Source: an uncultured Gammaproteobacteria bacterium (lineage in GTDB: Bacteria; Patescibacteriota; Microgenomatia; Levybacterales; UBA12049). Taken from it: a DNA stretch of 64,000 nucleotides. Each line of letters opens with the position of its first letter. Position 1 is the stretch's first letter. A model generated the notes under the pieces. That model saw nothing but the letters and a program-made list of their open reading frames with translations, did not search any database and was not told the origin of the DNA. This document shows positions 22,017 through 44,069 of the stretch, one piece after another. The translations under genes were made by a program, and so were the position numbers. The stretch is taken from contig CAYQEE010000002.1 of the NCBI GenBank assembly GCA_964416445.1, positions 106,691 through 170,690 of the forward strand, written 5' to 3'.

Positions 22017-23702
22017 TTATTCTAATCGTATTTCATGAACTGCAGCTCCACTTGGAACCATAGGAAATACTTTAGTTTCTTTTTTAACTTTTATTTCCAA
22101 AAGATATGGGTTTTTTGATGTAAATAATGTATCCAATGCTTTATCTAAATCACTTCTACGCTCTACTTTTTGTGCGTCGATATAGAATCCTTTTGCCACT
22201 GCGACGAAATCAGGATTTTGTAATTCTACAAAAGAATATCTATTATCAAAAAACATTTGTTGCCATTGACGCACCATTCCTAAAAAATTGTTATTTAAAA
22301 TAATGATTTTTACCGGAATTTGTTCTTGAGCAAGCGTTGCAAGTTCCTGAATATTCATTTGGAAACTACCATCTCCAATTATCGCGATTACTTCTCTATT
22401 TGGAGAGGCAACCTTTGCTCCTAGTGCTGCAGGTAATGCAAAACCCATTGTCCCTGCACCTCCAGAAGTAATAAAACTATCTGGTTTCTGAAATTTATAA
22501 TACCGAGCCGCAATCATTTGATGTTGCCCAACGTCAGCAACAACTATTGCCTCACCTTTGGTCTTTTCAGAAATACGATTAATGACTTCAGCCATAATAA
22601 TTTCGCCTTCTTTCGGATGAATCTCGCTTTCTATTACTTTTTTGTTTTCCTCATTATCATATTTTCTAAACTCGTTAAGCCATTCATCATGCCTATTTGG
22701 TTTACTATAGGAAATTAGTTCTTCAAGAGCAATTTTAGCATTAGATACTATGGGAACTTCAGCCCGAACATTTTTGTTTAGTTCTGCAGGATCGATATCA
22801 ATATGAATTATTTTTGCATGTCGTGCATAATCAGATAATCTTCCTGTCACACGATCATCAAACCTCATACCAACAGCAAGTATCACATCTGCCTTATTAG
22901 TGAGTACATTTGGACCATAATTACCATGCATACCCAACATACCAACGTATAATGGATGACCTACTGGAAAGGCAGATAGACCAAGCAAGGTCGAAGCTAC
23001 TGGAATTCCAGTTTTTTCAACAAATTTCTTTATCTCATTTTCAGCTTTTCCTATGAGAACACCATGGCCAATAAACATAAGTGGACGTTTTGCGGCATTG
23101 AGTAAATCAGATGCTAATTTAATTTGCTTGATGTTGGGTACCAAAGTTGGTTGATAACTTGGAATTCGCATTCGCTTTGGATAAGAAAAATTTAAAAGAT
23201 CTATTTGTGCACTTTTCGTAACATCAATCAATACTGGTCCTGGCCTCCCTGTTTTCGCAATATGAAACGCTTTTGCAAATACTTCAGGTATTTCAGAAAC
23301 TTTTGTAATTTGATAATTCCATTTGGTAATAGGGGTACTAATACCTATAATATCCGCTTCCTGAAATGCATCGGAACCCAATAAATTTTCTGCCACTTGA
23401 CCAGTGATACACACAAGAGGAACAGAATCCATCATTGCATCCATTATCGGAGTAATTAAATTTGTGGCACCAGGACCAGAAGTTACCAATACCACCCCTG
23501 GTTCACCAGTCATTCTTGCATAACCTTCTGCCGCATGTCCCGCACCTTGTTCATGACGGACTAAAATATGTCGAATTTTTTCTTTATAGTCATAGAGTGC
23601 GTCATACACAGGCATGATTGCCCCTCCAGGATATCCAAATATTACTTTTACTTTTTCTGCAAGCAACGATTCGATTATTGCATGCGATCCATTCATTTTC
23701 AT
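22017..23702 (-). CDS. ilvB: acetolactate synthase large subunit (ThDP-dependent)
   Basis: GYPGGAIMPVYDAL, GDGSFQMN ThDP motif. Start set at MKMNGSH (23702), because the longer ORF would run through the attenuator terminator. Confidence 0.9.
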   Translation of the reverse strand: MKMNGSHAIIESLLAEKVKVIFGYPGGAIMPVYDALYDYKEKIRHILVRHEQGAGHAAEGYARMTGEPGVVLVTSGPGATNLITPIMDAMMDSVPLVCITGQVAENLLGSDAFQEADIIGISTPITKWNYQITKVSEIPEVFAKAFHIAKTGRPGPVLIDVTKSAQIDLLNFSYPKRMRIPSYQPTLVPNIKQIKLASDLLNAAKRPLMFIGHGVLIGKAENEIKKFVEKTGIPVASTLLGLSAFPVGHPLYVGMLGMHGNYGPNVLTNKADVILAVGMRFDDRVTGRLSDYARHAKIIHIDIDPAELNKNVRAEVPIVSNAKIALEELISYSKPNRHDEWLNEFRKYDNEENKKVIESEIHPKEGEIIMAEVINRISEKTKGEAIVVADVGQHQMIAARYYKFQKPDSFITSGGAGTMGFALPAALGAKVASPNREVIAIIGDGSFQMNIQELATLAQEQIPVKIIILNNNFLGMVRQWQQMFFDNRYSFVELQNPDFVAVAKGFYIDAQKVERRSDLDKALDTLFTSKNPYLLEIKVKKETKVFPMVPSGAAVHEIRLE

Positions 23703-23728
23703 AAAAAAAATCCCCGCTGTAAGCGGGG
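23703..23728 (-). terminator. ilvB attenuator terminator CCCCGCUUACAGCGGGG-U8, abutting the ilvB ATG
   Basis: Perfect 6-bp GC stem plus 8 U on the minus strand. An alternative pairing is available with the upstream GCGGGG segment (23757-23771). Confidence 0.65.
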
Positions 23729-23763
23729 TTAAGTTTGTTTGCTCCAAGCAATCAAACCCCGCG

Positions 23764-23811
23764 TTAAGGGGTAATGACGACAAGGAGTTTAAGTGTGCTT
23801 TTCAATATCAT
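23764..23811 (-). CDS. branched-chain leader peptide MILKSTLKLLVVITP (ilvB leader, 15 aa)
   Basis: Regulatory run LLVVIT. The stop codon lies inside segment CCCCUUAACGCGGGG. Confidence 0.65.
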   Translation of the reverse strand: MILKSTLKLLVVITP

Positions 23812-23914: not shown

Positions 23915-24181
23915 GTGGAAAATAATACAACTCAAAAAACTCAGCGCTCCCCGTATGTTTTATCTAAATTTGATCTTCTTGGAACAATTTTAGAAGAGTG
24001 TCCAAGGGCAGCAGAATTATTAGCTGAATACGGGTTACATTGTATCAGTTGTTTTGCAAATCAGTTTGATACGTTAGAAATGGGTGCACAAGTACATGGG
24101 ATGACCGATGACGATCTTAACGATATGGTAAATGAAATTAATACTGAATTAGAACTCGAATGGAGACAGGGAAAATTATGA
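23915..24181 (+). CDS. small DUF1858-like protein (CxxC-containing), first gene of the suf cluster
   Basis: GTG start preceded by AGGAGGG. LSKFDLLGTILEECPRAAELLAEYGLHCISC resembles the DUF1858 family. The assignment is weak. Confidence 0.45.
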   Translation: MENNTTQKTQRSPYVLSKFDLLGTILEECPRAAELLAEYGLHCISCFANQFDTLEMGAQVHGMTDDDLNDMVNEINTELELEWRQGKL

Positions 24182-24927
24182 AAGCGTTAAAAATTACTGA
24201 TTTACATGTACAAACACTCGATGGGAAAAAAATATTAAACGGTGTTAATCTTGAAATAAAAACTGGTGAAATTCATGCTATTATGGGTCCGAACGGCGGT
24301 GGTAAATCAACATTCTCTCAAGTGCTCATGGGTCATCCCGGGTATGTTGTCACCCAAGGGACAATAGTTATTGATGGTATTGACATTACGTCTCTCTCCC
24401 CTGATCAACGAGCTAAACACGGGCTTTTCCTCGGTTTTCAATATCCAGTTGAAGTTGCTGGGGTTAACTTTGCAAACTATCTGAGACTCGCAATGAACGA
24501 GCAACGAAAAGAGCACGAGAAGAAGATTTCCCCAATCGCTTTTCGAAAACTTCTGGCTGAAAAAGCACAACCCTTAATGTTCAATGAGGATATTGCAAAA
24601 CGAATGCTCAATGAAGGGTTTTCGGGAGGTGAAAAGAAAAAATCAGAAATACTCCAATTAGCTATTTTGCAACCTGATTTTGCTATATTAGATGAACCAG
24701 ATTCTGGACTCGATATTGACGCCTTACGATACATTGCTAATAGTATAAATGCAATGAAGAGCAGTCTGGGATTGATTCTAATAACACATTATCAGAGGAT
24801 TCTTCGTTATATCAATCCACAATTTGTCCATATTATGATCAAAGGGAAACTTGTAGAATCAGGAAGTGGGAATCTTGCAAAAGAAATAGAAGAAAAAGGA
24901 TATGAAAATTACATTCAAAGTAATTAA
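24178..24927 (+). CDS. sufC: Fe-S cluster assembly ATPase
   Basis: GPNGGGKST Walker A, ABC signature, Walker [14 protein letters not shown] overlap with the upstream gene. Confidence 0.9.
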
Positions 24928-24932
24928 TTACT

Positions 24933-26336
24933 ATGGCATTGAACAAACAACCAGTTATCAAAGACTCTTATAAATTTGGTTTTCACAAACCAGAACTTTC
25001 TGTTTTTAAAACGCCAAAAGGATTAAATCCACAAGTAGTTGAAGCAATCTCTTACTTCAAGAAGGAACCCGCATGGATGCTAAAATTTCGACTCGATGCC
25101 TTGAAGATATTTGAGCAAAAACAGCTTCCAACATGGGGAGCAGATTTATCTGGAATTAATTTTAATGATATTTACTATTATATTAGTCCGTCAGAAAAAA
25201 AATTTCATACCTGGGACGAGGTTCCAAATGATATCAAAGACACTTATGATAAGATTGGAATACCGCAAGCTGAACGTAAGTTTTTAGCAGGTGTTGGGGC
25301 ACAATGGGATTCTGAAGTCATCTATCATAATTTAAAAACACAATGGGAAAACCAAGGTGTTATCTTTACTGATACTGATACTGCCCTTCAAAAGTATCCT
25401 GATATTTTTAAACATTATTTCGGAACTATTATCCCTCCATATGATAATAAGCTTGCAGCACTTAATTCAGCAGTTTGGAGTGGAGGTTCATTTATCTATG
25501 TACCAAAAGGTATTCATGTCGAAATTCCTTTACAAGCATATTTTAGGATAAATGCAAATAATATGGGGCAATTCGAAAGAACACTCATCATTGCAGAAGA
25601 AGGAAGTTACGTACATTACGTCGAGGGATGCACGAGCCCAATTTATACAACTGACTCCTTACACGCTGCTGTTGTTGAAATTATTGTCAAAAAAGGAGCT
25701 CGAGTTCGCTATACAACAATACAAAACTGGTCAAATAACGTTTATAACCTCGTAACAAAACGTATGAAAGTTGAAGAAGAAGGAATTGGAGAATGGATCG
25801 ATGGAAATTTAGGTTCCAAAATCACAATGAAGTACCCTTCTGTATTTTTAACAGGAAAAGGAGCTAAAGGAGAGGTACTATCACTCGCATTTGCTGGGAA
25901 AGGACAACACCAAGATGCAGGAGGAAAAGCATTTCATCTTGCTCCTTATACAACAAGCACTATTACCTCTAAATCGGTTAGTATGGGCGGAGGCAGAGCA
26001 AGTTATCGAGGAATGATAAAAATATTGAATGGTGCAAAAGGAAGTAAATCATTTGTGCGATGTGATGCATTACTCCTCGATGAACTCTCTCGTTCAGATA
26101 CATATCCTACTAATATTGTGAATGAACAAGATATTACTCTTGGACATGAAGCATCAGTCAGTAAAGTTGGTCAAGAACAACTTTTTTATCTTATGTCACG
26201 AGGTTTATCTGAGGCAGAAGCAACATCATTAATTGTTAATGGATTCATTGAACCTATTGTTAAAGAACTTCCTTTAGAATATGCTGTTGAACTGAACAGG
26301 CTTATTGAACTTTCAATGGAAGGAGCTGTTGGGTAA
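24933..26336 (+). CDS. sufB: Fe-S cluster assembly scaffold protein
   Basis: 467 aa with the SufB/SufD beta-helix core. Confidence 0.9.
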
Positions 26337-26360
26337 TATATTACTCATGATGTATCTTCT

Positions 26361-26927
26361 ATGTATAACGAAATTACTATAGAGAAAGAACAACATGTCA
26401 CTATTCCTATCCTTTGGACAGGAGAAGAAACGAATCTATCGTATTCCATTATACTTAATGGTCGTGGAGGAAAAGTAACATTTCTTGCATTGCTTTTAGG
26501 GAATAATGCGGACAATTTAACTCTGGAAACAAAAGTATACCATCAGGCACAGGATACCAAAAGTGAAATTATTGTGAGAAGTACTTTAACTGATCGTGCA
26601 CAAGTAAATTTTAACGGATTAGTATCCATAGCTCATGGCGCTAAAGGGACAAATGCATGGCTAGCAGCTCATATTTTATTGCTTTCTGATAAAGCAAAAG
26701 GTCAAGCTATTCCTAGTTTAGAAATACTGGAGAATGATATTAAAGCAGGCCACGCAACAACTGTAGGAAGAGTCCATGATAACGAACTTTTTTATCTCAT
26801 GTCACGAGGCATACCAAAACAAAAAGCAAAAGAGTTAATTGTTGAAGGTTTTTTGGAAAGTATGCTTACTCTTTTCCCAAATAAACTCGCAGAAAGAGCA
26901 AGAAAGGAACTACAAACGCATGAATAA
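26361..26927 (+). CDS. sufD: SufD-like protein, truncated (188 aa; only the C-terminal beta-helix/helical part)
   Basis: Paralogous to the sufB C-terminus (FYLMSRGIP shared), but less than half the usual SufD length. Confidence 0.65.
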   Translation: MYNEITIEKEQHVTIPILWTGEETNLSYSIILNGRGGKVTFLALLLGNNADNLTLETKVYHQAQDTKSEIIVRSTLTDRAQVNFNGLVSIAHGAKGTNAWLAAHILLLSDKAKGQAIPSLEILENDIKAGHATTVGRVHDNELFYLMSRGIPKQKAKELIVEGFLESMLTLFPNKLAERARKELQTHE

Positions 26928-28155
26928 GGCAATTTTTAACAACATAAAAGATGATTTTCCTATCTTTTCTCATTATCCAAACTTGATTTACTTGGACAAT
27001 GCAGCCACTTCACAAAAACCAAAATCAGTTATTAACGCAGTCAGTACATTCTACCAGCGGCATAATGCAAATATTCATAGGGGGATTTACTCATTAAGCC
27101 AAGATGCGACACATTTATTTGAACAAACACGGAATCAAGTAGCTCAATTTATTGGAGTAACTAATTCTCAGGAAATTGTTTTCACCGGTAATGCGTCAGA
27201 AGCAATCAATGTTGTTGCCTATGGATGGGCAAGAAAACAATTACAAAAAGGAGACATTATTATCACCACTGAGATGGAACATCACTCAAACATTGTCCCC
27301 TGGCAGCGGCTGAAAGACGAAATAGGAATTCAGTTAGTTTTTCTTCCCATAGGACCAGACTATAAGCTTGATTATAAAAAGTTAAAAGATATGTCTATTG
27401 CTTTAGACAAAATTAAACTTTTAGCAATTTCTCATGCATCAAATGTATTAGGTGTTATTAATCCCATAAATGAAATAATAACCTACTTGAAACAAATTGG
27501 TGTTCATACTAAAGTATTGGTTGATGCGGCTCAATCTATTCCCCACTTACCTATTAATGTCAATAATCTAGGATGTGATTTTCTCGTTTTTTCATCACAT
27601 AAAATGCTCGGTCCTTCAGGTGTTGGCGTACTTTGGGGAAAGAAAGAACTGCTTCTTGAGACAGATCCTTTCTTTGTTGGAAGCCATATGATTCGTAGCG
27701 TTACCAAGGAAAAAGCTACTTGGGCAGATCTTCCCGATAAATTCGAAACAGGAACTCGCAATTTAGAGGGAGTAATTGGACTAGGGGCAGCTATCAAATA
27801 CTTACAATCTGTTGACATGGAAGTTTTAATGAAACATGAACTAGATTTAACAGACTATTCGCTTCAATTATTACAAAAGATTAAAGATATTAAGGTATAT
27901 GGGCCCCAAACCTCTACCAATAGATTAGGAGTATTTTCATTTAACATTGCAAATATTCATGCACATGATGTTGCCGAGATACTCAATAGACATCATATTG
28001 CAGTACGTTCAGGACACCATTGCGCACAAACAGTTATGCAATTCATTAATGAACCAGCAACTATTCGAGCATCGTTCTATCTCTACAATACAAAAAGGGA
28101 TATTGAAAAATTAATAGAAGGAATTGAAAATGTTAAAAAAATATTTAGTTTATGA
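26920..28155 (+). CDS. sufS: cysteine desulfurase
   Basis: SHKMLGPSGVGVLWG PLP-lysine motif and catalytic Cys in RSGHHCAQ. Start MNKAIF at 26920 overlaps the sufD stop. Confidence 0.9.
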   Translation: MNKAIFNNIKDDFPIFSHYPNLIYLDNAATSQKPKSVINAVSTFYQRHNANIHRGIYSLSQDATHLFEQTRNQVAQFIGVTNSQEIVFTGNASEAINVVAYGWARKQLQKGDIIITTEMEHHSNIVPWQRLKDEIGIQLVFLPIGPDYKLDYKKLKDMSIALDKIKLLAISHASNVLGVINPINEIITYLKQIGVHTKVLVDAAQSIPHLPINVNNLGCDFLVFSSHKMLGPSGVGVLWGKKELLLETDPFFVGSHMIRSVTKEKATWADLPDKFETGTRNLEGVIGLGAAIKYLQSVDMEVLMKHELDLTDYSLQLLQKIKDIKVYGPQTSTNRLGVFSFNIANIHAHDVAEILNRHHIAVRSGHHCAQTVMQFINEPATIRASFYLYNTKRDIEKLIEGIENVKKIFSL

Positions 28156-28526
28156 ACAACGTACATGATACTCTTTATAGAGAAATTATATTAGAGCATT
28201 GGAAGAATCCATTAAACTATGGGGTTATAATAAATGCGACAATTGATATCACCGATAATAATCCACTCTGTGGAGATTCTATTAGAATTACAGCAAATTT
28301 TTCTAAAGATAATCTGACTGAAATTAAATTTACTTCTGAAGGTTGCGCAATTTCAAAAGCATCAGCCTCAATTTATACCGAAATGATAAAAAATAAATCA
28401 ATAGAAAAGCTCACATTAATAACAGAACATGCAATCCTCAATGAGCTAGGGGTAAGCTTAACTCCAGCTAGAAAAAAGTGTGCTCTGTTAGCCTATCGAA
28501 CTTTTCTAAAGGCCATAAAATCATAA
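28152..28526 (+). CDS. sufU: SufU-type sulfur transfer / Fe-S scaffold-like protein
   Basis: NPLCGDSI, SEGCAISKASAS and KKCALLAYRT motifs of the IscU/SufU family. Confidence 0.8.
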   Translation: MNNVHDTLYREIILEHWKNPLNYGVIINATIDITDNNPLCGDSIRITANFSKDNLTEIKFTSEGCAISKASASIYTEMIKNKSIEKLTLITEHAILNELGVSLTPARKKCALLAYRTFLKAIKS

Positions 28527-33785: not shown

Positions 33786-33806
33786 AAAAAAACCCGCTCT
33801 TCGCGG
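33786..33806 (-). terminator. leu attenuator terminator CCCGCGAAGAGCGGG-U7, ending 11 nt before the leuA ATG
   Basis: Its 5' arm UCCCGC can alternatively pair with GCGGGA, which overlaps the leader stop codon (antiterminator). Confidence 0.65.
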
Positions 33807-33839
33807 GAGTTCGTTTGTTACTAGCCAAACAATCCCGCC

Positions 33840-33884
33840 TTAAACGGAAAGGAGTGAAAGGCCAAGAAGTAAATTTTTTATCAT
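33840..33884 (-). CDS. Leu-rich leader peptide MIKNLLLGLSLLSV (leu leader, 14 aa)
   Basis: 6 of 14 residues are Leu. Stop UAA directly abuts the GGCGGGA antiterminator segment. Confidence 0.65.
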   Translation of the reverse strand: MIKNLLLGLSLLSV

Positions 33885-39491: not shown

Positions 39492-41018
39492 CTAAGATAA
39501 CCAATTGCAAATAACATCTTCAATGAGTTTTTTTTTAACTGCATAATATTCTTTAAATCTTATTTCTTTCGATCGTAATCCACTTATATTTTCAGGAATA
39601 TCCACTCCAGAAATCACGCTATTAATCTGTGAAAGTATTTCAAATTCATTCGTAAAAGTATGCTCTTCATTTACTAGTGAACTATAAATATTTTTAATAA
39701 ATTTTGACCAGTGAGCAGTGGAACAAATCAGTAAAGGTAGTTTATGCTCTGTCTTCATCTGAAATTGTTCACCTATTTTTTGAGCAACTGATGTATGTGG
39801 ATCTATAATATAGTTTGTTTCATAAAATATCTTTGTTATATTCTGTAAACACGCTGTATTATTAACCCATCCTGCATAAAACTCATTTTGTAAGATTCGT
39901 TTCGTTTCAGTATCCACTTCAAATCTTCCATTTTCCATTAAGTTCTTCATCCATACAGTAACCTTACCAGTGTTATTTGTAATTAGATATAAAAGTCGTT
40001 CTATATTACTCGCAATAAGAATATCCATTGAAGGTGAAGGAGTTTTAATTAATGACCTATTATTTATTGAATAAACACCAGTTTGCAAAAAATCTACAAG
40101 AACATTATTTTCATTAGATGCACAAATAAGTTTACGGATGGGTAACCCCATTAATTTTGCATAATACGCTGCAAGAAGATTCCCAAAATTTCCTGTAGGA
40201 ACGACAAGATCAATTTGTTGGCCTAATTCAATTTTGTTCCTATTAATTAATTCTAAATAACTACTTATATGATAAATTATTTGAGGAAGTAATCTCCCCC
40301 AGTTAATTGAATTTGCCGAAGAAAGTTTAATATTACGATTTTTCATCATATTTTGAAAAATTTTGTCCTTAAAAATTTCTTTAACAAGATTTTGAACATT
40401 ATCAAAATTACCTTCCAGGGCAAAAACACCAAGATTGCTCCCTTCTTGCGTAACCATTTGAAGTTCTTGCAACTGGGAGACGTGATCTTTAGGATAAAAA
40501 ACAAGAAGGTTAATATCTTTCTTATTTTTGTATCCTTCTAATGCTGCTTTTCCAGTATCTCCTGACGTAGCAACAAGAATAAGATATTGAACTGGTTTCT
40601 TACCTTGTTTAATAAGAAGCAAATTATTTCGTTTAACTGCTTTTTGAAAAAATAGAGGCATTATTTGTAATGCTAAATCTTTAAATGCTAATGTAGGACC
40701 ATGCCAAAGCTCCAACACAAATTGATTTTCTTTCAAAGGATGTACTGGTACTATTTGTTTATGTCTAAAATTAACCCCATATGCTTCTTTAACTATTTTT
40801 TTTAATGAAGCATATGAAAAATCTGTTTGAAAACTATTTAATATTGCAACTGCAATTTCTTGATACGATTTTCCTACCAAGTGCTGTAATTGAGTTTTCG
40901 TAAACTTAGGTATTTTCGTAGGGACAAATAAACCTCCATCTCGGGCAATATTATTAAGAATAACTTCTGAAAATGTAAATACTTTGGTGTCTCCTCGAGT
41001 ACTTTTGTAGTTAATCAT
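39492..41018 (-). CDS. thrC: threonine synthase (long form, about 500 aa)
   Basis: WHGPTLAFKD PLP-lysine motif and overall long ThrC architecture. Confidence 0.9.
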   Translation of the reverse strand: MINYKSTRGDTKVFTFSEVILNNIARDGGLFVPTKIPKFTKTQLQHLVGKSYQEIAVAILNSFQTDFSYASLKKIVKEAYGVNFRHKQIVPVHPLKENQFVLELWHGPTLAFKDLALQIMPLFFQKAVKRNNLLLIKQGKKPVQYLILVATSGDTGKAALEGYKNKKDINLLVFYPKDHVSQLQELQMVTQEGSNLGVFALEGNFDNVQNLVKEIFKDKIFQNMMKNRNIKLSSANSINWGRLLPQIIYHISSYLELINRNKIELGQQIDLVVPTGNFGNLLAAYYAKLMGLPIRKLICASNENNVLVDFLQTGVYSINNRSLIKTPSPSMDILIASNIERLLYLITNNTGKVTVWMKNLMENGRFEVDTETKRILQNEFYAGWVNNTACLQNITKIFYETNYIIDPHTSVAQKIGEQFQMKTEHKLPLLICSTAHWSKFIKNIYSSLVNEEHTFTNEFEILSQINSVISGVDIPENISGLRSKEIRFKEYYAVKKKLIEDVICNWLS

Positions 41019-41637
41019 ATCTTTCTATTACTTCAAGCAATAAATCTTCAGAAAATCTCTCATGTCGTAGTAAATGATAATCAAAGATAATTTCAGCTAG
41101 CTTTTTGTATTTATCCGTTCGAAACAACAAAAGTTTTTCATAACATCGCGCGAGAGCTTCTTTTGGAGATTCTCCTTCCTGTAAGGAAAATGCATCTCCC
41201 CAAATGATAGGCTTTGGATCACGTACAAATAATTCAAACATCTGACGTTTAACTCGATATGGAGTATGCAGATAAACCATTTTTGAGTATTGTGATAATT
41301 GGTTAAGAATATCAGCATGGGTATAAATTAAACTTCCTGTCGTGTCAACAACGATATTTTCATCGGAAGCAGTTTTGATTTTCTCAATTACTTCACGCAT
41401 TACTTCGATTTCATATTGAAGATATTTTGCACTCGTCTTCTTATATCTATGTTCATATGGATATCCCATCCATTTTGCAACATCTTGTATGCCTGTGTAA
41501 CCTAATTTTTTAAGTTCATGTGATAACTTCTCTTCAATAAGATCGTCACAGCAGATTCTTATAAATCCTTTCTTTTCTAATTTCTTTGACCAAAATGATT
41601 TGCCAGAACCTGATATACCTACCAATGTAACTATCAT
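41011..41637 (-). CDS. P-loop kinase of the shikimate-kinase/NMP-kinase fold, at the operon position normally held by homoserine kinase
   Basis: Walker A GISGSGKS, acidic CDD region, DTTGS and VYL segments matching the shikimate kinase pattern. 8-nt overlap with thrC, 45 nt after hom. Confidence 0.6.
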   Translation of the reverse strand: MIVTLVGISGSGKSFWSKKLEKKGFIRICCDDLIEEKLSHELKKLGYTGIQDVAKWMGYPYEHRYKKTSAKYLQYEIEVMREVIEKIKTASDENIVVDTTGSLIYTHADILNQLSQYSKMVYLHTPYRVKRQMFELFVRDPKPIIWGDAFSLQEGESPKEALARCYEKLLLFRTDKYKKLAEIIFDYHLLRHERFSEDLLLEVIERYD

Positions 41638-41682
41638 AAAATTATTCCTTTCGTTATTGCTTGCATTGATCTAGAGAGTGTG

Positions 41683-42762
41683 TTATCCATGTGATACTCC
41701 TTTTACTCTTCTTGCAATAGTTAAAATGTCTCCAAATACTCCAGCGGCAGTAACATCAATACCTGCTCCAGGACCTTTAATTATTAATGGATTATTAAAA
41801 TATCTTTTTGTTTTAATAACAAATAAATTATCTGTACCCTTTAAGCTACCCATATCACTTGTTTTTGACACAGCCTGTAATCCTACTTCGCAGGTATTTC
41901 TATTTATTTCAGCAACATATCGCAAATGCATATTATTTTTACTCTCAATTGCAGAACGTTGAAGATATTCTGCATCGAGATCTGGTAAAAGTTTTAGAAA
42001 TTCATGACTTTTTAGATTGTTCATATACCTAGGAAAAAGTCCAGCCAATCGGACTTTTTCAAATTCTGACGGCCAACCGCAAAGTCGCGATAGTATTAAT
42101 GCTTTTCTTGCCACGTCCATTCCCGAAAGGTCACTCCGTGGATCTGGTTCAGCAAAACCTTTATTTATTGCTGAATATACAGTCTCTGAAAAAAGTTTAC
42201 CTCGCTCCATTTGTGAGAAAATGTATCCTAACGTTCCACTTAAACAACCATGAATTTCTAGTATTTCATCTCCTGTATCTCGTAATGTTCTTATCGTCTG
42301 AATAACTGGTAATCCTGCACCAACTACTGTTTCAAAATAAAGTACATGACCCTTTACTTGTTGGAGTTCATCATACTGTTTTTGTGAATGGGAAAGTGGT
42401 TTTTTATTAGCCATAACAACAAAACCATTTTGACGCATAGCCTGACAAATATGCGCAATGGTTTTATCAGATGCTGTAGTGTCTATCAGAACAAAAGGAT
42501 AGTTAATTAGTTCAATTGCCTTTTTGATATTTTTTTCATTATCTTCGGCGACTTGACTTTGGTGTAACTCCAATACTAGATCTGAATAGGTACTAAACGA
42601 AATTCCATCTTTATTAAAAATTCCTTTCTGAGAAGTGAATAATCCACAATACGTGAGTTCAATTCCATACTCTTGTTTAATCCATACCTGTTGATTAATA
42701 ATTTGTTCAACTACTTTTCTACCAATATTTCCCATTCCTAAGTGAATAATATTCAATTTCAT
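41683..42762 (-). CDS. hom: homoserine dehydrogenase (no ACT domain)
   Basis: GMGNIGRKV NAD site and catalytic-domain motifs GAGAGLPVI and LSGTLGYIF. Confidence 0.85.
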   Translation of the reverse strand: MKLNIIHLGMGNIGRKVVEQIINQQVWIKQEYGIELTYCGLFTSQKGIFNKDGISFSTYSDLVLELHQSQVAEDNEKNIKKAIELINYPFVLIDTTASDKTIAHICQAMRQNGFVVMANKKPLSHSQKQYDELQQVKGHVLYFETVVGAGLPVIQTIRTLRDTGDEILEIHGCLSGTLGYIFSQMERGKLFSETVYSAINKGFAEPDPRSDLSGMDVARKALILSRLCGWPSEFEKVRLAGLFPRYMNNLKSHEFLKLLPDLDAEYLQRSAIESKNNMHLRYVAEINRNTCEVGLQAVSKTSDMGSLKGTDNLFVIKTKRYFNNPLIIKGPGAGIDVTAAGVFGDILTIARRVKGVSHG

Positions 42763-42763
42763 A

Positions 42764-43678
42764 TTAACTATCTTTACATATCTTTGTTCCGATAAAATCA
42801 GGGTTAAAAGTATTTTTTACCCAAACAGGTATTCCTTTTAGAGAGACAGGTATCATTGCCTCGGGATGTAAAATTTTTGCTCCCTTTTTTGAAAGCAATA
42901 AAGCATCTTCGTAGCTTAATTGAGAATATAACTTCGCATTTTGATTTACATGAGGATCACTACAATACACGCCGTTAACTTCTTTCCAAAGAATTACTTG
43001 CGTTGCATCGAAAATATAGGCAAGCAAAGTAGCACTATAATCAGAACCTCCCCTTCCTAAACTTATAATTGTTCCATTTTTTGTTGATGCAAAAAAACCT
43101 GTCACTATAGGAACTATTTTTTTTCTGATAAGTGGAACTACTAGCTTATCAGCGTTACATGTTGTTTCTTTCACAAGTACAATTGGATTGGATAAATCTT
43201 TCAAAATAATAATCTCCGAAGCATTTATTGCTCTTGCTGAATTCTCATACTTATTCAATGCCGCAGCTACTAGATGACTACTAAATCGTTCCCCATACGT
43301 TATGATATATTCATAATCAACTTGAGAAAGTGTCCTTCTCTGTTTCAAATTGTCTTGTAATGTTTTGTATAAATCATACAGAGATTCTTCTAGATTCTGG
43401 AAAATATTTTTGGGTAATTGTAACTCTTTAAGAACCTGCATATGAAGTTCATAGAGCAGTCGCAATTCATAATCTCCTTCTTCAAATTCGTTTTCTTTAT
43501 ATTTATTAAATACTGAGATAAGTTTATCTGTTACCTTGTACATTGCGGAGACGACAACAAGAATATCGTCATGCCTGCGAAATTTTCTAATAATTTCAGC
43601 TACATGTAATATCTTACCTCCAGACTCTAGTGATGATCCACCAAATTTCATTACAATCATACTCTGTTTTATAAACAT
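42764..43678 (-). CDS. aspartate kinase, catalytic domain only (304 aa, no ACT regulatory domains)
   Basis: VMKFGGSSL N-terminal motif of the amino-acid kinase family. Too short to hold the usual two C-terminal ACT domains. Confidence 0.75.
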   Translation of the reverse strand: MFIKQSMIVMKFGGSSLESGGKILHVAEIIRKFRRHDDILVVVSAMYKVTDKLISVFNKYKENEFEEGDYELRLLYELHMQVLKELQLPKNIFQNLEESLYDLYKTLQDNLKQRRTLSQVDYEYIITYGERFSSHLVAAALNKYENSARAINASEIIILKDLSNPIVLVKETTCNADKLVVPLIRKKIVPIVTGFFASTKNGTIISLGRGGSDYSATLLAYIFDATQVILWKEVNGVYCSDPHVNQNAKLYSQLSYEDALLLSKKGAKILHPEAMIPVSLKGIPVWVKNTFNPDFIGTKICKDS

Positions 43679-43702
43679 AAAAAAACCTCCCTTTGGGAGG
43701 TT
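43679..43702 (-). terminator. thr attenuator terminator AACCUCCCAAAGGGAGGUU-U7, abutting the aspartokinase ATG
   Basis: An alternative 12-bp antiterminator GGGAG(U)GUUUGUA/UACAAACCUCCC involves the last leader-peptide codons. Confidence 0.65.
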
Positions 43703-43723
43703 TGTAAGTTTATTTGTTATTCA

Positions 43724-43792
43724 CTACAAACACTCCCAAACAAATTGGGTAATTGTAGTAATACTAATACTTATATATTGATAATGTTGCAT
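43724..43792 (-). CDS. Thr/Ile-rich leader peptide MQHYQYISISITTITQFVWECL (thr leader, 22 aa)
   Basis: Run ISISITTIT (4 Ile, 3 Thr) like the E. coli thr leader. Stop UAG lies inside the antiterminator 5' strand. Confidence 0.65.
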   Translation of the reverse strand: MQHYQYISISITTITQFVWECL

Positions 43793-43798
43793 AAAAAT

Positions 43799-44034
43799 AA
43801 AAAAAACCGCCGTCAAATATTACGCTTGTAATATTCAAAGGCGGATATTCTCCGTGGTTCCACTTTGATTCCTCTTACGAGGCACTTATCAGTTCTTTAT
43901 CGGAAACTATCCGTTTTAGCTTCTCAGGTTGTCCTCCGGAAAGACTTTATGCTGAAAGCTTACACTCATTGGCTTTCTTCTCTATACATGCCATCTTCCC
44001 CTTCTCGTCTAAGTCCAATCGCTAAATTAAAACT
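43799..44034 (-). promoter_or_regulatory. T-box riboswitch-like leader (about 235 nt) ending in its own intrinsic terminator, upstream of the thr leader peptide
   Basis: Minus strand. Antiterminator CAAAG-[UGGAACC bulge]-A-CGGA-GAAUA-UCCG-C-CUUUG (+43836..43867). Stem III-like CCUC-GUAA-GAGG just upstream. AGAGA bulge followed by hairpin GAAAGC-N12-GCUUUC (Stem I distal-like). Terminator CCGCCUUUGAAUAUUAC...GUAAUAUUUGACGGCGG-U8 (+43799..43844) sequesters CUUUG. Confidence 0.55.
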
Positions 44035-44040
44035 AAAAAT

Positions 44041-44069
44041 ATTCTAACGAACAAATAAAAACTTGTCAA
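44041..44069 (-). promoter_or_regulatory. promoter TTGACA-N17-TAGAAT for the thr control region
   Basis: Perfect -35 and near-consensus -10 with a 17-nt spacer; read on the minus strand. Confidence 0.5.

Follow-up and report, generated by a model that had tools for sequence, protein, structure and literature searches.

The 64,000-nucleotide stretch of contig CAYQEE010000002.1 analyzed here (the window) carries a threonine biosynthesis operon, aspartokinase-hom-kinase-thrC, on its minus strand, and our analysis suggests that the leader of this thr operon holds two sensors of threonyl-tRNA charging in series. The first is a T-box element predicted to bind uncharged tRNA-Thr directly, and the second is a leader-peptide attenuator predicted to respond to ribosome stalling at Thr and Ile codons. 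Both would terminate transcription by default and, because both terminators are the stable default, an AND gate is the most likely logic. We give this reading a probability of roughly 0.8. An earlier note on this DNA had proposed a T-box and a Thr/Ile leader-peptide attenuator in series upstream of the operon, and this proposal is supported by a match to the T-box family RF00230, by covariation of each T-box helix, by a Thr specifier triplet (ACN) in nine T-boxes, and by 13 Thr-rich open reading frames (ORFs) with alternative pairings.

Read along the minus strand from 44069 to 43679, the region comprises a promoter, a 229-nt structured leader, a 22-codon ORF, and a hairpin with a U7 tract, and then the aspartokinase ATG. 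The promoter, T-box leader, first terminator, leader ORF, and second antiterminator/terminator pair were all present where the earlier note had placed them, and the promoter it described as consensus matches at 11/12 positions. These features are far beyond chance expectation. Related contigs, with aspartokinases only 46-56% identical, carry them as well, with compensatory changes. The promoter and T-box features are as follows.

44041-44069, minus strand: sigma-70-type promoter, TTGACA at 44069-44064, 17-nt spacer, TAGAAT at 44046-44041
43834-44028, minus strand: T-box leader to the end of the antiterminator, with Stem I, Stem IIA/B pseudoknot, Stem III, and antiterminator; no Stem II
43915-44026, minus strand: Stem I, with base helix UUUAGC/GCUAAA, K-turn-like region, lower helix CUUAG/CUGAG, specifier loop, and upper helix GGGAAGA/UCUUUCC
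43983-43979, minus strand: AGAGA bulge of Stem I
43971-43960, minus strand: distal loop of Stem I, aligned to RF00230
43930-43932, minus strand: specifier codon ACA (Thr), presented by the Stem I specifier loop GGAGG-ACA-A; the next base, A at 43929, is the conserved purine
43913-43901, minus strand: Stem IIA hairpin, loop UAGUUU
43895-43890, minus strand: Stem IIB 3' strand GAACUG, pairing with the Stem IIA loop UAGUUU (pseudoknot region 43890-43913)
43871-43882, minus strand: Stem III CCUC-GUAA-GAGG, 3/4 pairs changed on both sides, 96% of cells paired
43836-43867, minus strand: antiterminator, with helix A1 CAAAG/CUUUG (43867-43863 with 43840-43836), bulge, and A2 hairpin
43862-43856, minus strand: T-box bulge UGGAACC, 7 nt
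within 43836-43867, minus strand: A2 hairpin CGGA-GAAUA-UCCG
43799-43844, minus strand: terminator 1 (the T-box terminator), a 38-nt stem-loop at 43844-43807 plus U8 at 43806-43799, -18.8 kcal/mol

The RF00230 model was matched in full (positions 1-219) by 44028-43834, with 51.4 bits and E-values of 2.1e-10 (region) and 2.5e-8 (64-kb window). With reporting by E-value, this was the sole non-tRNA Rfam match with E <0.05. The alignment places every T-box element that the earlier note had named, namely A1, the UGGAACC bulge, A2, Stem III, and the AGAGA bulge with its distal loop, and likewise the base helix with the K-turn region, the specifier loop, and a small hairpin where Stem IIA is expected. 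The distal AG bulge and distal loop of Stem I are both present, the loop reading AGUG where the family motif is GNUG.

For the specifier, the earlier note had offered ACU or CUG within AAAGAACUGA. This site was rejected, because AAAGAACUGA serves as the 3' strand in the Stem IIA/B pseudoknot (43895-43890); the actual specifier is ACA at 43930-43932. Across nine homologous T-boxes (related loci carry L numbers here), the triplet is ACA in the window, ACU in L084, L087, L178, and L179, and ACC in L086, L120, L146, and L171. An A comes next in every case, then the lower helix, and since the wobble base alone varies (9/9), the RNA is under selection to present a Thr codon. This ACN-A pattern agrees with the published description of the specifier loop as GAA...NNN-A (PMC5794164). 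At the other end of the element, UGG-ACC is invariant in the nine sequences, with the variable base A in eight and G in one (L086). The earlier inference from UGGA to a tRNA with a U73 discriminator is logically right as a prediction, and either A or G could pair with U73.

Covariation was scored on a seven-sequence alignment (alignment A2), with the structure written from the Rfam alignment and with 3' partners slid by 1-3 columns as controls. For the antiterminator form, 96.9% of cells held standard pairs, compared to 40-54% when slid, and nine pairs were changed on both sides; for the terminator form, the values were 96.8%, 41-53%, and 12 pairs. None of 500 shuffles reached the observed covariation score for either form. 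Most compensatory changes lie in Stem III and in the upper Stem I helix, where four pairs were changed on both sides, and the lower helix varies at one position (A-U/G-U/G-C). The IIA/B pseudoknot forms 4-6 bp in one register in 7/7 sequences, its 3' strand lying 4-5 nt downstream of the hairpin, with compensatory versions UAGUUC/GAACUA, UGGUUC/GAACCA, UGACUU/AAGUUA, GCUC/GAGC, and ACCA/UGGU (combined shuffle p = 7e-4). A1 and A2 are paired in 97-100% of cells, so that both the bulge and the helices whose conservation the earlier note had asked about are kept among relatives. Folded alone, the antiterminator is weak and not stable, as expected for a helix stabilized by tRNA.

The competing terminator was also borne out, with the 17 bp and U8 that had been claimed and with its use of the CUUUG strand. 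The 5' arm of this terminator takes in sequence that also belongs to A2 and to the 3' strand of A1. The 17-pair helix is 97.5% paired among the aligned sequences, with three pairs changed on both sides, including a window-only change from U-A to C-G. A simple terminator scan missed this hairpin owing to its internal mismatches, and folding recovered it.

Relatives were collected from contigs encoding the closest aspartokinases (46-56% identity) and from one metagenome DNA scan, which together gave homologous leaders in 13 distinct related contigs besides the window. The metagenome scan, which used the Stem I 3' strand with a free codon, returned 83 stretches, of which only three (L116, L120, and L146) were real leaders; the remaining stretches were chance matches in GC-rich coding DNA. 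A genome scan with patterns from the aspartokinase alignment was also discarded, as the patterns were too generic and retrieved only 30-38% identical aspartokinases of other phyla. RF00230 scored the homologous leaders L084, L086, L087, L120, L146, L178, and L179 at 35-55 bits. The arrangements, in 5' to 3' order, are as follows.

T-box, leader peptide, operon: the window, L084, L086, and L120; L146 before a different gene
T-box, thrS, leader peptide, operon: L171, L178, and L179
T-box, operon: L087
deleted T-box remnant, leader peptide, operon: L180/L181
leader peptide, operon: L173, L174, L175/L176, and L177

The direct tandem is thus found in four distinct contigs besides the window. In L146 (656-2552, minus strand), the T-box(ACC) and Thr leader tandem precedes a 522-aa protein without a Pfam match and not an aspartokinase; L116 is a partial near-copy. 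In three contigs (L171 960-3000, L178 370-2500, and L179 140-2260), a Thr T-box, thrS, and a Thr attenuator are followed by aspartokinase-hom-asd-kinase-thrC, and the leader AUG lies within a few bases of the thrS stop codon. From these three relatives, the form with thrS likely is ancestral, the tandem having arisen by loss or movement of thrS.

Stem I itself varies in extent. The long version is kept in the window, L084, L086, L178, and L179, and a short version lacking the AG bulge and distal-loop platform is found in L087 (2754-2945), L120 (4313-4504), and L146 (2363-2552), capped in L087 and L146 by a GUAA-containing tetraloop. The AG bulge and distal loop are absent from L171 as well, where all that is left of Stem I is a bare hairpin that displays ACC (loop ACUCACCAA).

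The same series raises the question of whether the attenuator alone works, with the T-box left as a decaying relic of a T-box-thrS-attenuator-thr operon after the loss of thrS. The position of thrS between the two elements in L171, L178, and L179 fits this idea, as do the four loci that manage with an attenuator alone, the A-C mismatch that closes helix A2 in the window, and the obviously deleted remnant before the leader ORF in L180/L181. This remnant (L180 2290-2500 and L181 1-170) consists of a Stem I 5' fragment ACUUGGGACGAG, a small hairpin, and a terminator tail GACGGAUUUUUUU, directly before the Thr leader ORF MTYRNSIAIITTTTTSTTRWEDS. However, real decay in L180 takes the form of deletion, unlike anything in the tandem loci, and in the four tandem loci upstream of an aspartokinase (46-56% aspartokinase identity), each of the helices, the pseudoknot, ACN-A, and UGGN are intact with compensatory changes. 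Even when only the tandem loci are compared, pairing is kept in Stem III, in the upper Stem I helix, and in the pseudoknot despite differences in their sequences, which argues that the T-box is under selection there. In the strand common to A2 and the terminator, the window has a single U-to-C change; the terminator helix compensates for it with C-G for U-A, and in A2 it produces the A-C mismatch. We therefore consider a relic T-box improbable.

T-boxes of other specificity occur in the related contigs, with further Rfam matches before alaS and before glyA. The alaS T-box, in Gottesmanbacteria contig L175 (2618-2786, minus strand), scores 67 bits, below the Rfam gathering score, and has the specifier loop GAA-GCC-A and the bulge UGGU. 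As tRNA-Ala has an A73 discriminator, this bulge fits an alanine T-box. In L084 (1130-1370), two antiterminator/terminator units stand in tandem before glyA (serine hydroxymethyltransferase). Judged by these sequences, T-boxes are in use within this clade.

Downstream of terminator 1, the leader continues into the second putative sensor, whose features are as follows.

43724-43792, minus strand: leader ORF MQHYQYISISITTITQFVWECL plus UAG, 22 codons, with Ile/Thr codons 7-15 at 43774-43748
43679-43749, minus strand: attenuator RNA, regions 1-4 plus U7
43749-43745, minus strand: region 1, CCCAA
43739-43724, minus strand: region 2, UUGGGAGUGUUUGUAG, containing the stop codon
43708-43695, minus strand: region 3, CUUACAAACCUCCC
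43691-43686, minus strand: region 4, GGGAGG, also the Shine-Dalgarno sequence of the aspartokinase
43685-43679, minus strand: U7 tract, abutting the aspartokinase ATG at 43678
43702-43679, minus strand: terminator 2, CCUCCC-AAA-GGGAGG plus U7, -13.1 kcal/mol

The 22-aa leader peptide claimed by the earlier note is present as the ORF at 43792-43724, with three Thr and four Ile codons among codons 7-15, and it has Thr-rich orthologues in 13 loci. The orthologous ORFs (n = 13, 15-23 codons) encode 67 Thr in 265 residues (25%). In 13/13, a run of 3-10 Thr codons with mixed synonymous codons, often with adjacent Ile codons, lies 4-9 codons before the stop. The leader AUG is conserved; the sequence upstream of it is U/A-rich, or the 5' untranslated region (UTR) is very short in promoter-proximal versions.

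The second antiterminator/terminator pair was found as described, with its U7 tract against the aspartokinase ATG. The antiterminator is formed by GGGAGUGUUUGUAG pairing with CUUACAAACCUCCC. Attenuator pairings were scored by per-sequence duplex folding, the MAFFT alignments being out of structural register in the 3' half. Among the 13 loci, all had a 1:2 hairpin directly after the Thr run, a 2:3 duplex (-9 to -24 kcal/mol) that takes in the stop codon or lies next to it, and a 3:4 terminator with a U-tract. Compensatory changes between loci include GUUUGUA/UACAAAC, GUGUA/UACAC, and UUUCGUA/UACGAGA. The GGGAGG that forms the 3' arm of terminator 2 lies 7 nt upstream of the next AUG, and the hairpin would therefore also mask the ribosome-binding site.

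The response to ribosome position was simulated by masking a 28-nt ribosome footprint while folding ten loci. The terminator formed in 10/10 loci when the footprint was placed at the stop codon and was lost in 9/10 when it was placed at the run's first Thr codon, the behavior known from classical attenuators.

Similar designs stand before two other operons of the window.

23701-23811, minus strand: leader-peptide attenuator of ilvB, ORF MILKSTLKLLVVITP with ATG at 23811; CCCCGC-UUACA-GCGGGG, then A plus U8, ending at the ilvB ATG at 23701
33790-33883, minus strand: leader-peptide attenuator of leuA, ORF MIKNLLLGLSLLSV, with promoter, ATG at 33883, and terminator CCCGC-GAAGA-GCGGG plus U7

The encoded peptides are Leu/Val/Ile-rich before the ilv operon and Leu-rich before the leu operon, and the leuA 5' UTR apparently amounts to a few bases only. 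Neither attenuator was detected by Rfam. Because ilvB and leuA carry the same design, this organism appears to use leader-peptide attenuation routinely.

It is possible to read the second element another way, with the T-box working, the small ORF untranslated, and the second hairpin a constitutive or otherwise controlled terminator that also masks the ribosome-binding site. No Shine-Dalgarno sequence precedes the leader AUG in any locus, which is in keeping with that view, and the Rfam leader-peptide models, whose use the earlier note had proposed, gave weak matches only (34 bits for Phe_leader, and 16 for Thr_leader, RF00506, compared to a gathering score of 55). Against it, all thirteen ORFs have in-frame runs of 3-10 Thr codons in which the synonymous codons vary, the stop codon falls within region 2 or immediately ahead of it, and the region-1 hairpin begins directly after the Thr run. 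The matching Leu/Val/Ile-rich ORFs of the ilv and leu operons point the same way. We regard an untranslated ORF as very improbable, and translation is what the conserved Thr-codon run and frame suggest.

At the junction between the two elements, the window has 6 nt from the T-box U-tract to the leader AUG; L084 and L120 have 0 nt, and L146 and L086 have 12-19 nt. If the two were independent units, a T-box-like small RNA would end at terminator 1, and the leader ORF and operon would have a promoter of their own; no observation spoke in favor of this. The earlier note had itself raised such a separate promoter, and a promoter scan found no promoter-like site between the two terminators in the window. 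Where a T-box is present, a TTGACA-type promoter sits before it, in the same position in the relatives; where it is absent, TTGACA-N17-TAGAAT lies directly upstream of the leader ORF. With as few as 0-6 nt between the first U-tract and the leader AUG, this placement of promoters leaves two independent units a close to negligible probability.

Several observations do weigh against two working sensors in series. At 51.4 bits, the T-box falls below the RF00230 gathering score of 93; the scan suggested by the earlier note thus gave a full-length match with an E-value of 2.5e-8 for the window and a subthreshold score, and a default Rfam scan of the region does not report the T-box because of this cutoff. 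Stem II is missing, its model positions being deleted in the RF00230 alignment, with only ~52 nt between Stem I and the antiterminator. As glyQS-type T-boxes also lack Stem II, its absence does not exclude membership in the family. The K-turn region of the Stem I base, conserved in every homologue, aligned to the model, with a 3' strand reading AA where the consensus is GA. To these can be added the A-C closing pair of A2, the missing Shine-Dalgarno sequence of the leader ORF, and L086, which retains the terminator with a stalled ribosome in the simulation. Finally, ARAGORN found no tRNA-Thr gene in the window or in 16 loci. An extra tRNA in L120 (13747-13818), detected by Rfam and missed by ARAGORN, is tRNA-His (anticodon loop GUG, extra 5' G, C73).

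From the sequence elements, their conservation and covariation, their codon content, and their thermodynamic plausibility, we infer tRNA binding, translation of the leader ORF, termination at both sites, and a multiplicative output. Transcription would start a few bases past TAGAAT, and the nascent T-box Stem I would display ACA. Uncharged tRNA-Thr with the anticodon UGU would pair with ACA, and its free 3' end with UGGA in the bulge, holding the weak antiterminator so that polymerase passes terminator 1 (U8 at 43806-43799). Charged tRNA would be unable to stabilize the antiterminator, and the -18.8 kcal/mol terminator 1 would win. The read-through RNA would bear the 22-codon leader ORF, starting 6 nt past the U-tract. 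With ample Thr-tRNA and Ile-tRNA, the ribosome would reach the UAG in region 2, leaving region 3 to pair with region 4; terminator 2 would then form just before the aspartokinase start, with the GGGAGG ribosome-binding site buried. A stall at the Ile/Thr codons 7-15 would instead cover region 1 and let region 2 pair with region 3, blocking terminator 2 and freeing the ribosome-binding site. The T-box would thus read the charged/uncharged state of the ACA-pairing isoacceptor, and the ribosome the rate of decoding at ACU, ACA, ACC, and Ile codons.

Each element has well-known counterparts. With T-boxes of RF00230, such as those of B. subtilis tyrS, thrS, and glyQS, the window element shares the specifier loop GAA...NNN-A, the AG bulge, and the distal loop. 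It also shares the IIA/B pseudoknot, Stem III, the UGGN-ACC antiterminator bulge, a mutually exclusive intrinsic terminator, and the match between specifier codon and regulated pathway. It differs in its score below the gathering cutoff, in lacking Stem II, in being followed by a second, ribosome-dependent attenuator, and in its host from the candidate phyla radiation (CPR). With thrL (RF00506) and the trp, his, leu, and ilv attenuators, the second element has in common a short Thr/Ile-rich ORF, 1:2, 2:3, and 3:4 pairings, a stop at region 2, and a terminator before the first gene. E. coli thrL also mixes Thr and Ile codons. By its score (16 bits compared to 55), the window element is analogous rather than homologous to enterobacterial thrL. 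It further differs from thrL-type attenuators in that its ORF has no Shine-Dalgarno sequence, its terminator 3' arm is the next ribosome-binding site, and it sits 3' of a T-box rather than of a promoter.

The earlier note knew of no described example of this arrangement. A precedent exists in the B. subtilis at (rtpA/yczA, anti-TRAP) leader, in which a tRNA-Trp T-box is followed by rtpLP, with three Trp codons and tRNA-dependent ribosome stalling (Chen and Yanofsky, Science 2003 and Mol Cell 2004, as cited in PMC10327191). The two systems share a T-box followed by an ORF rich in codons for the same amino acid, so that uncharged tRNA is sensed twice. The window has the same combination, an ACA specifier and a Thr-codon ORF 6 nt past the U-tract, and this combination recurs to make five distinct loci. 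Because of the anti-TRAP operon, we describe the arrangement as a variant and not as the first of its kind. The leader peptide of the at operon controls translation initiation of the next gene, whereas the leader ORF of the window would drive a transcription terminator/antiterminator (U7) together with masking of the ribosome-binding site. The window system also differs in sensing Thr and not Trp, in preceding a biosynthetic operon and not a regulator, and in belonging to another phylum.

Other serial leaders are known as well. Tandem riboswitches and tandem T-boxes occur, the latter for example in the trp operons of some Firmicutes, and the Salmonella mgtA leader combines a Mg2+ riboswitch with the proline-codon ORF mgtL. 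These share with the thr leader the placement of serial modules on one leader, giving a sharper or combined response. The known tandems use sensors of the same kind or read different signals, whereas here two mechanisms would read charging of tRNA for the same amino acid. We also considered the S. aureus ilv leader as a precedent and rejected it, since the leader peptide there replaces the T-box and no tandem is present. In a review-type analysis, T-boxes and leader-peptide attenuators have been treated as interchangeable alternatives between phyla (PMC2965389). Within the paper library that we searched, we found nothing linking T-boxes with Patescibacteria or candidate phyla, and no description of a T-box and leader-peptide tandem for threonine or of this arrangement in Patescibacteria.

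The host belongs to the Patescibacteria (CPR), Microgenomates group, with a G+C content of ~34%, and an identical copy of the locus is present in the Logan runs SRR12266072-77. The host FtsH shares 75-78% identity with proteins named Candidatus Levybacteria, Microgenomates, or Patescibacteria, and the closest named aspartokinases are from Gottesmanbacteria and Patescibacteria. The regulated operon is composed as follows.

39492-43678, minus strand: thr operon, aspartokinase-hom-kinase-thrC
42764-43678, minus strand: aspartokinase, 304 aa, amino-acid-kinase domain alone, without ACT domains
41683-42762, minus strand: homoserine dehydrogenase (hom)
41011-41637, minus strand: 208-aa P-loop kinase (AAA_33/AAA_18), between hom and thrC
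39492-41018, minus strand: threonine synthase (thrC)

This gene order is kept in relatives, mostly with asd added. The 208-aa P-loop kinase is kept in most related operons and has a weak match to the non-canonical homoserine kinase model NF040667; in L173 and L177, its slot is taken by a GHMP-type homoserine kinase. It is probably a non-orthologous homoserine kinase. The annotated aspartokinase start codon (ATG at 43678) may represent an in-frame extension; in the family consensus, the protein starts MIVMKFGG (ATG at 43660). The aspartokinases of close relatives likewise have only the catalytic domain, and because ACT domains, the usual mediators of feedback inhibition, are missing, allosteric feedback on the enzyme is probably absent.

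Elsewhere in the window, amino-acid biosynthesis genes are unusually abundant for a Patescibacteria genome (14799-23783 and 29170-34860). These include ilvB, an aminotransferase, ilvA, ilvD, avtA, ilvE, and leuA/C/D/B. The suf Fe-S cluster genes lie at 24160-28526.

A broader proposal, which we hold to be evenly poised between right and wrong, is that Microgenomates carry an undescribed subclass of T-boxes. Its members would lack Stem II, keep the IIA/B pseudoknot, range in Stem I from full length to a bare hairpin, and score below the Rfam threshold. In several lineages, they would be fused directly to a classical leader-peptide attenuator, making a two-key AND gate in which both tRNA binding and ribosome stalling are needed for thr transcription. 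If this is true, the thr leader would be the first tandem of a T-box and a transcriptional leader-peptide attenuator. The series from T-box-thrS-attenuator through T-box-attenuator, remnant-attenuator, and attenuator only to T-box only would then show the gain and loss of regulatory modules. Because such T-boxes score below the Rfam threshold, current annotation pipelines miss them.

The presence of both sensor types on a single transcript, serving one amino acid, would show that cells can use them in combination. It would also provide a natural case in which to study what is gained from two readouts of tRNA charging, the uncharged/charged ratio of a single isoacceptor and the decoding rate at several Thr and Ile codons. 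The CPR bacteria are commonly portrayed as poor in biosynthesis and regulation, and yet this 64-kb window has thr, ilv, and leu operons, each with an RNA attenuator. An aspartokinase without ACT domains may help explain why so much of the control would be exerted at the RNA level.

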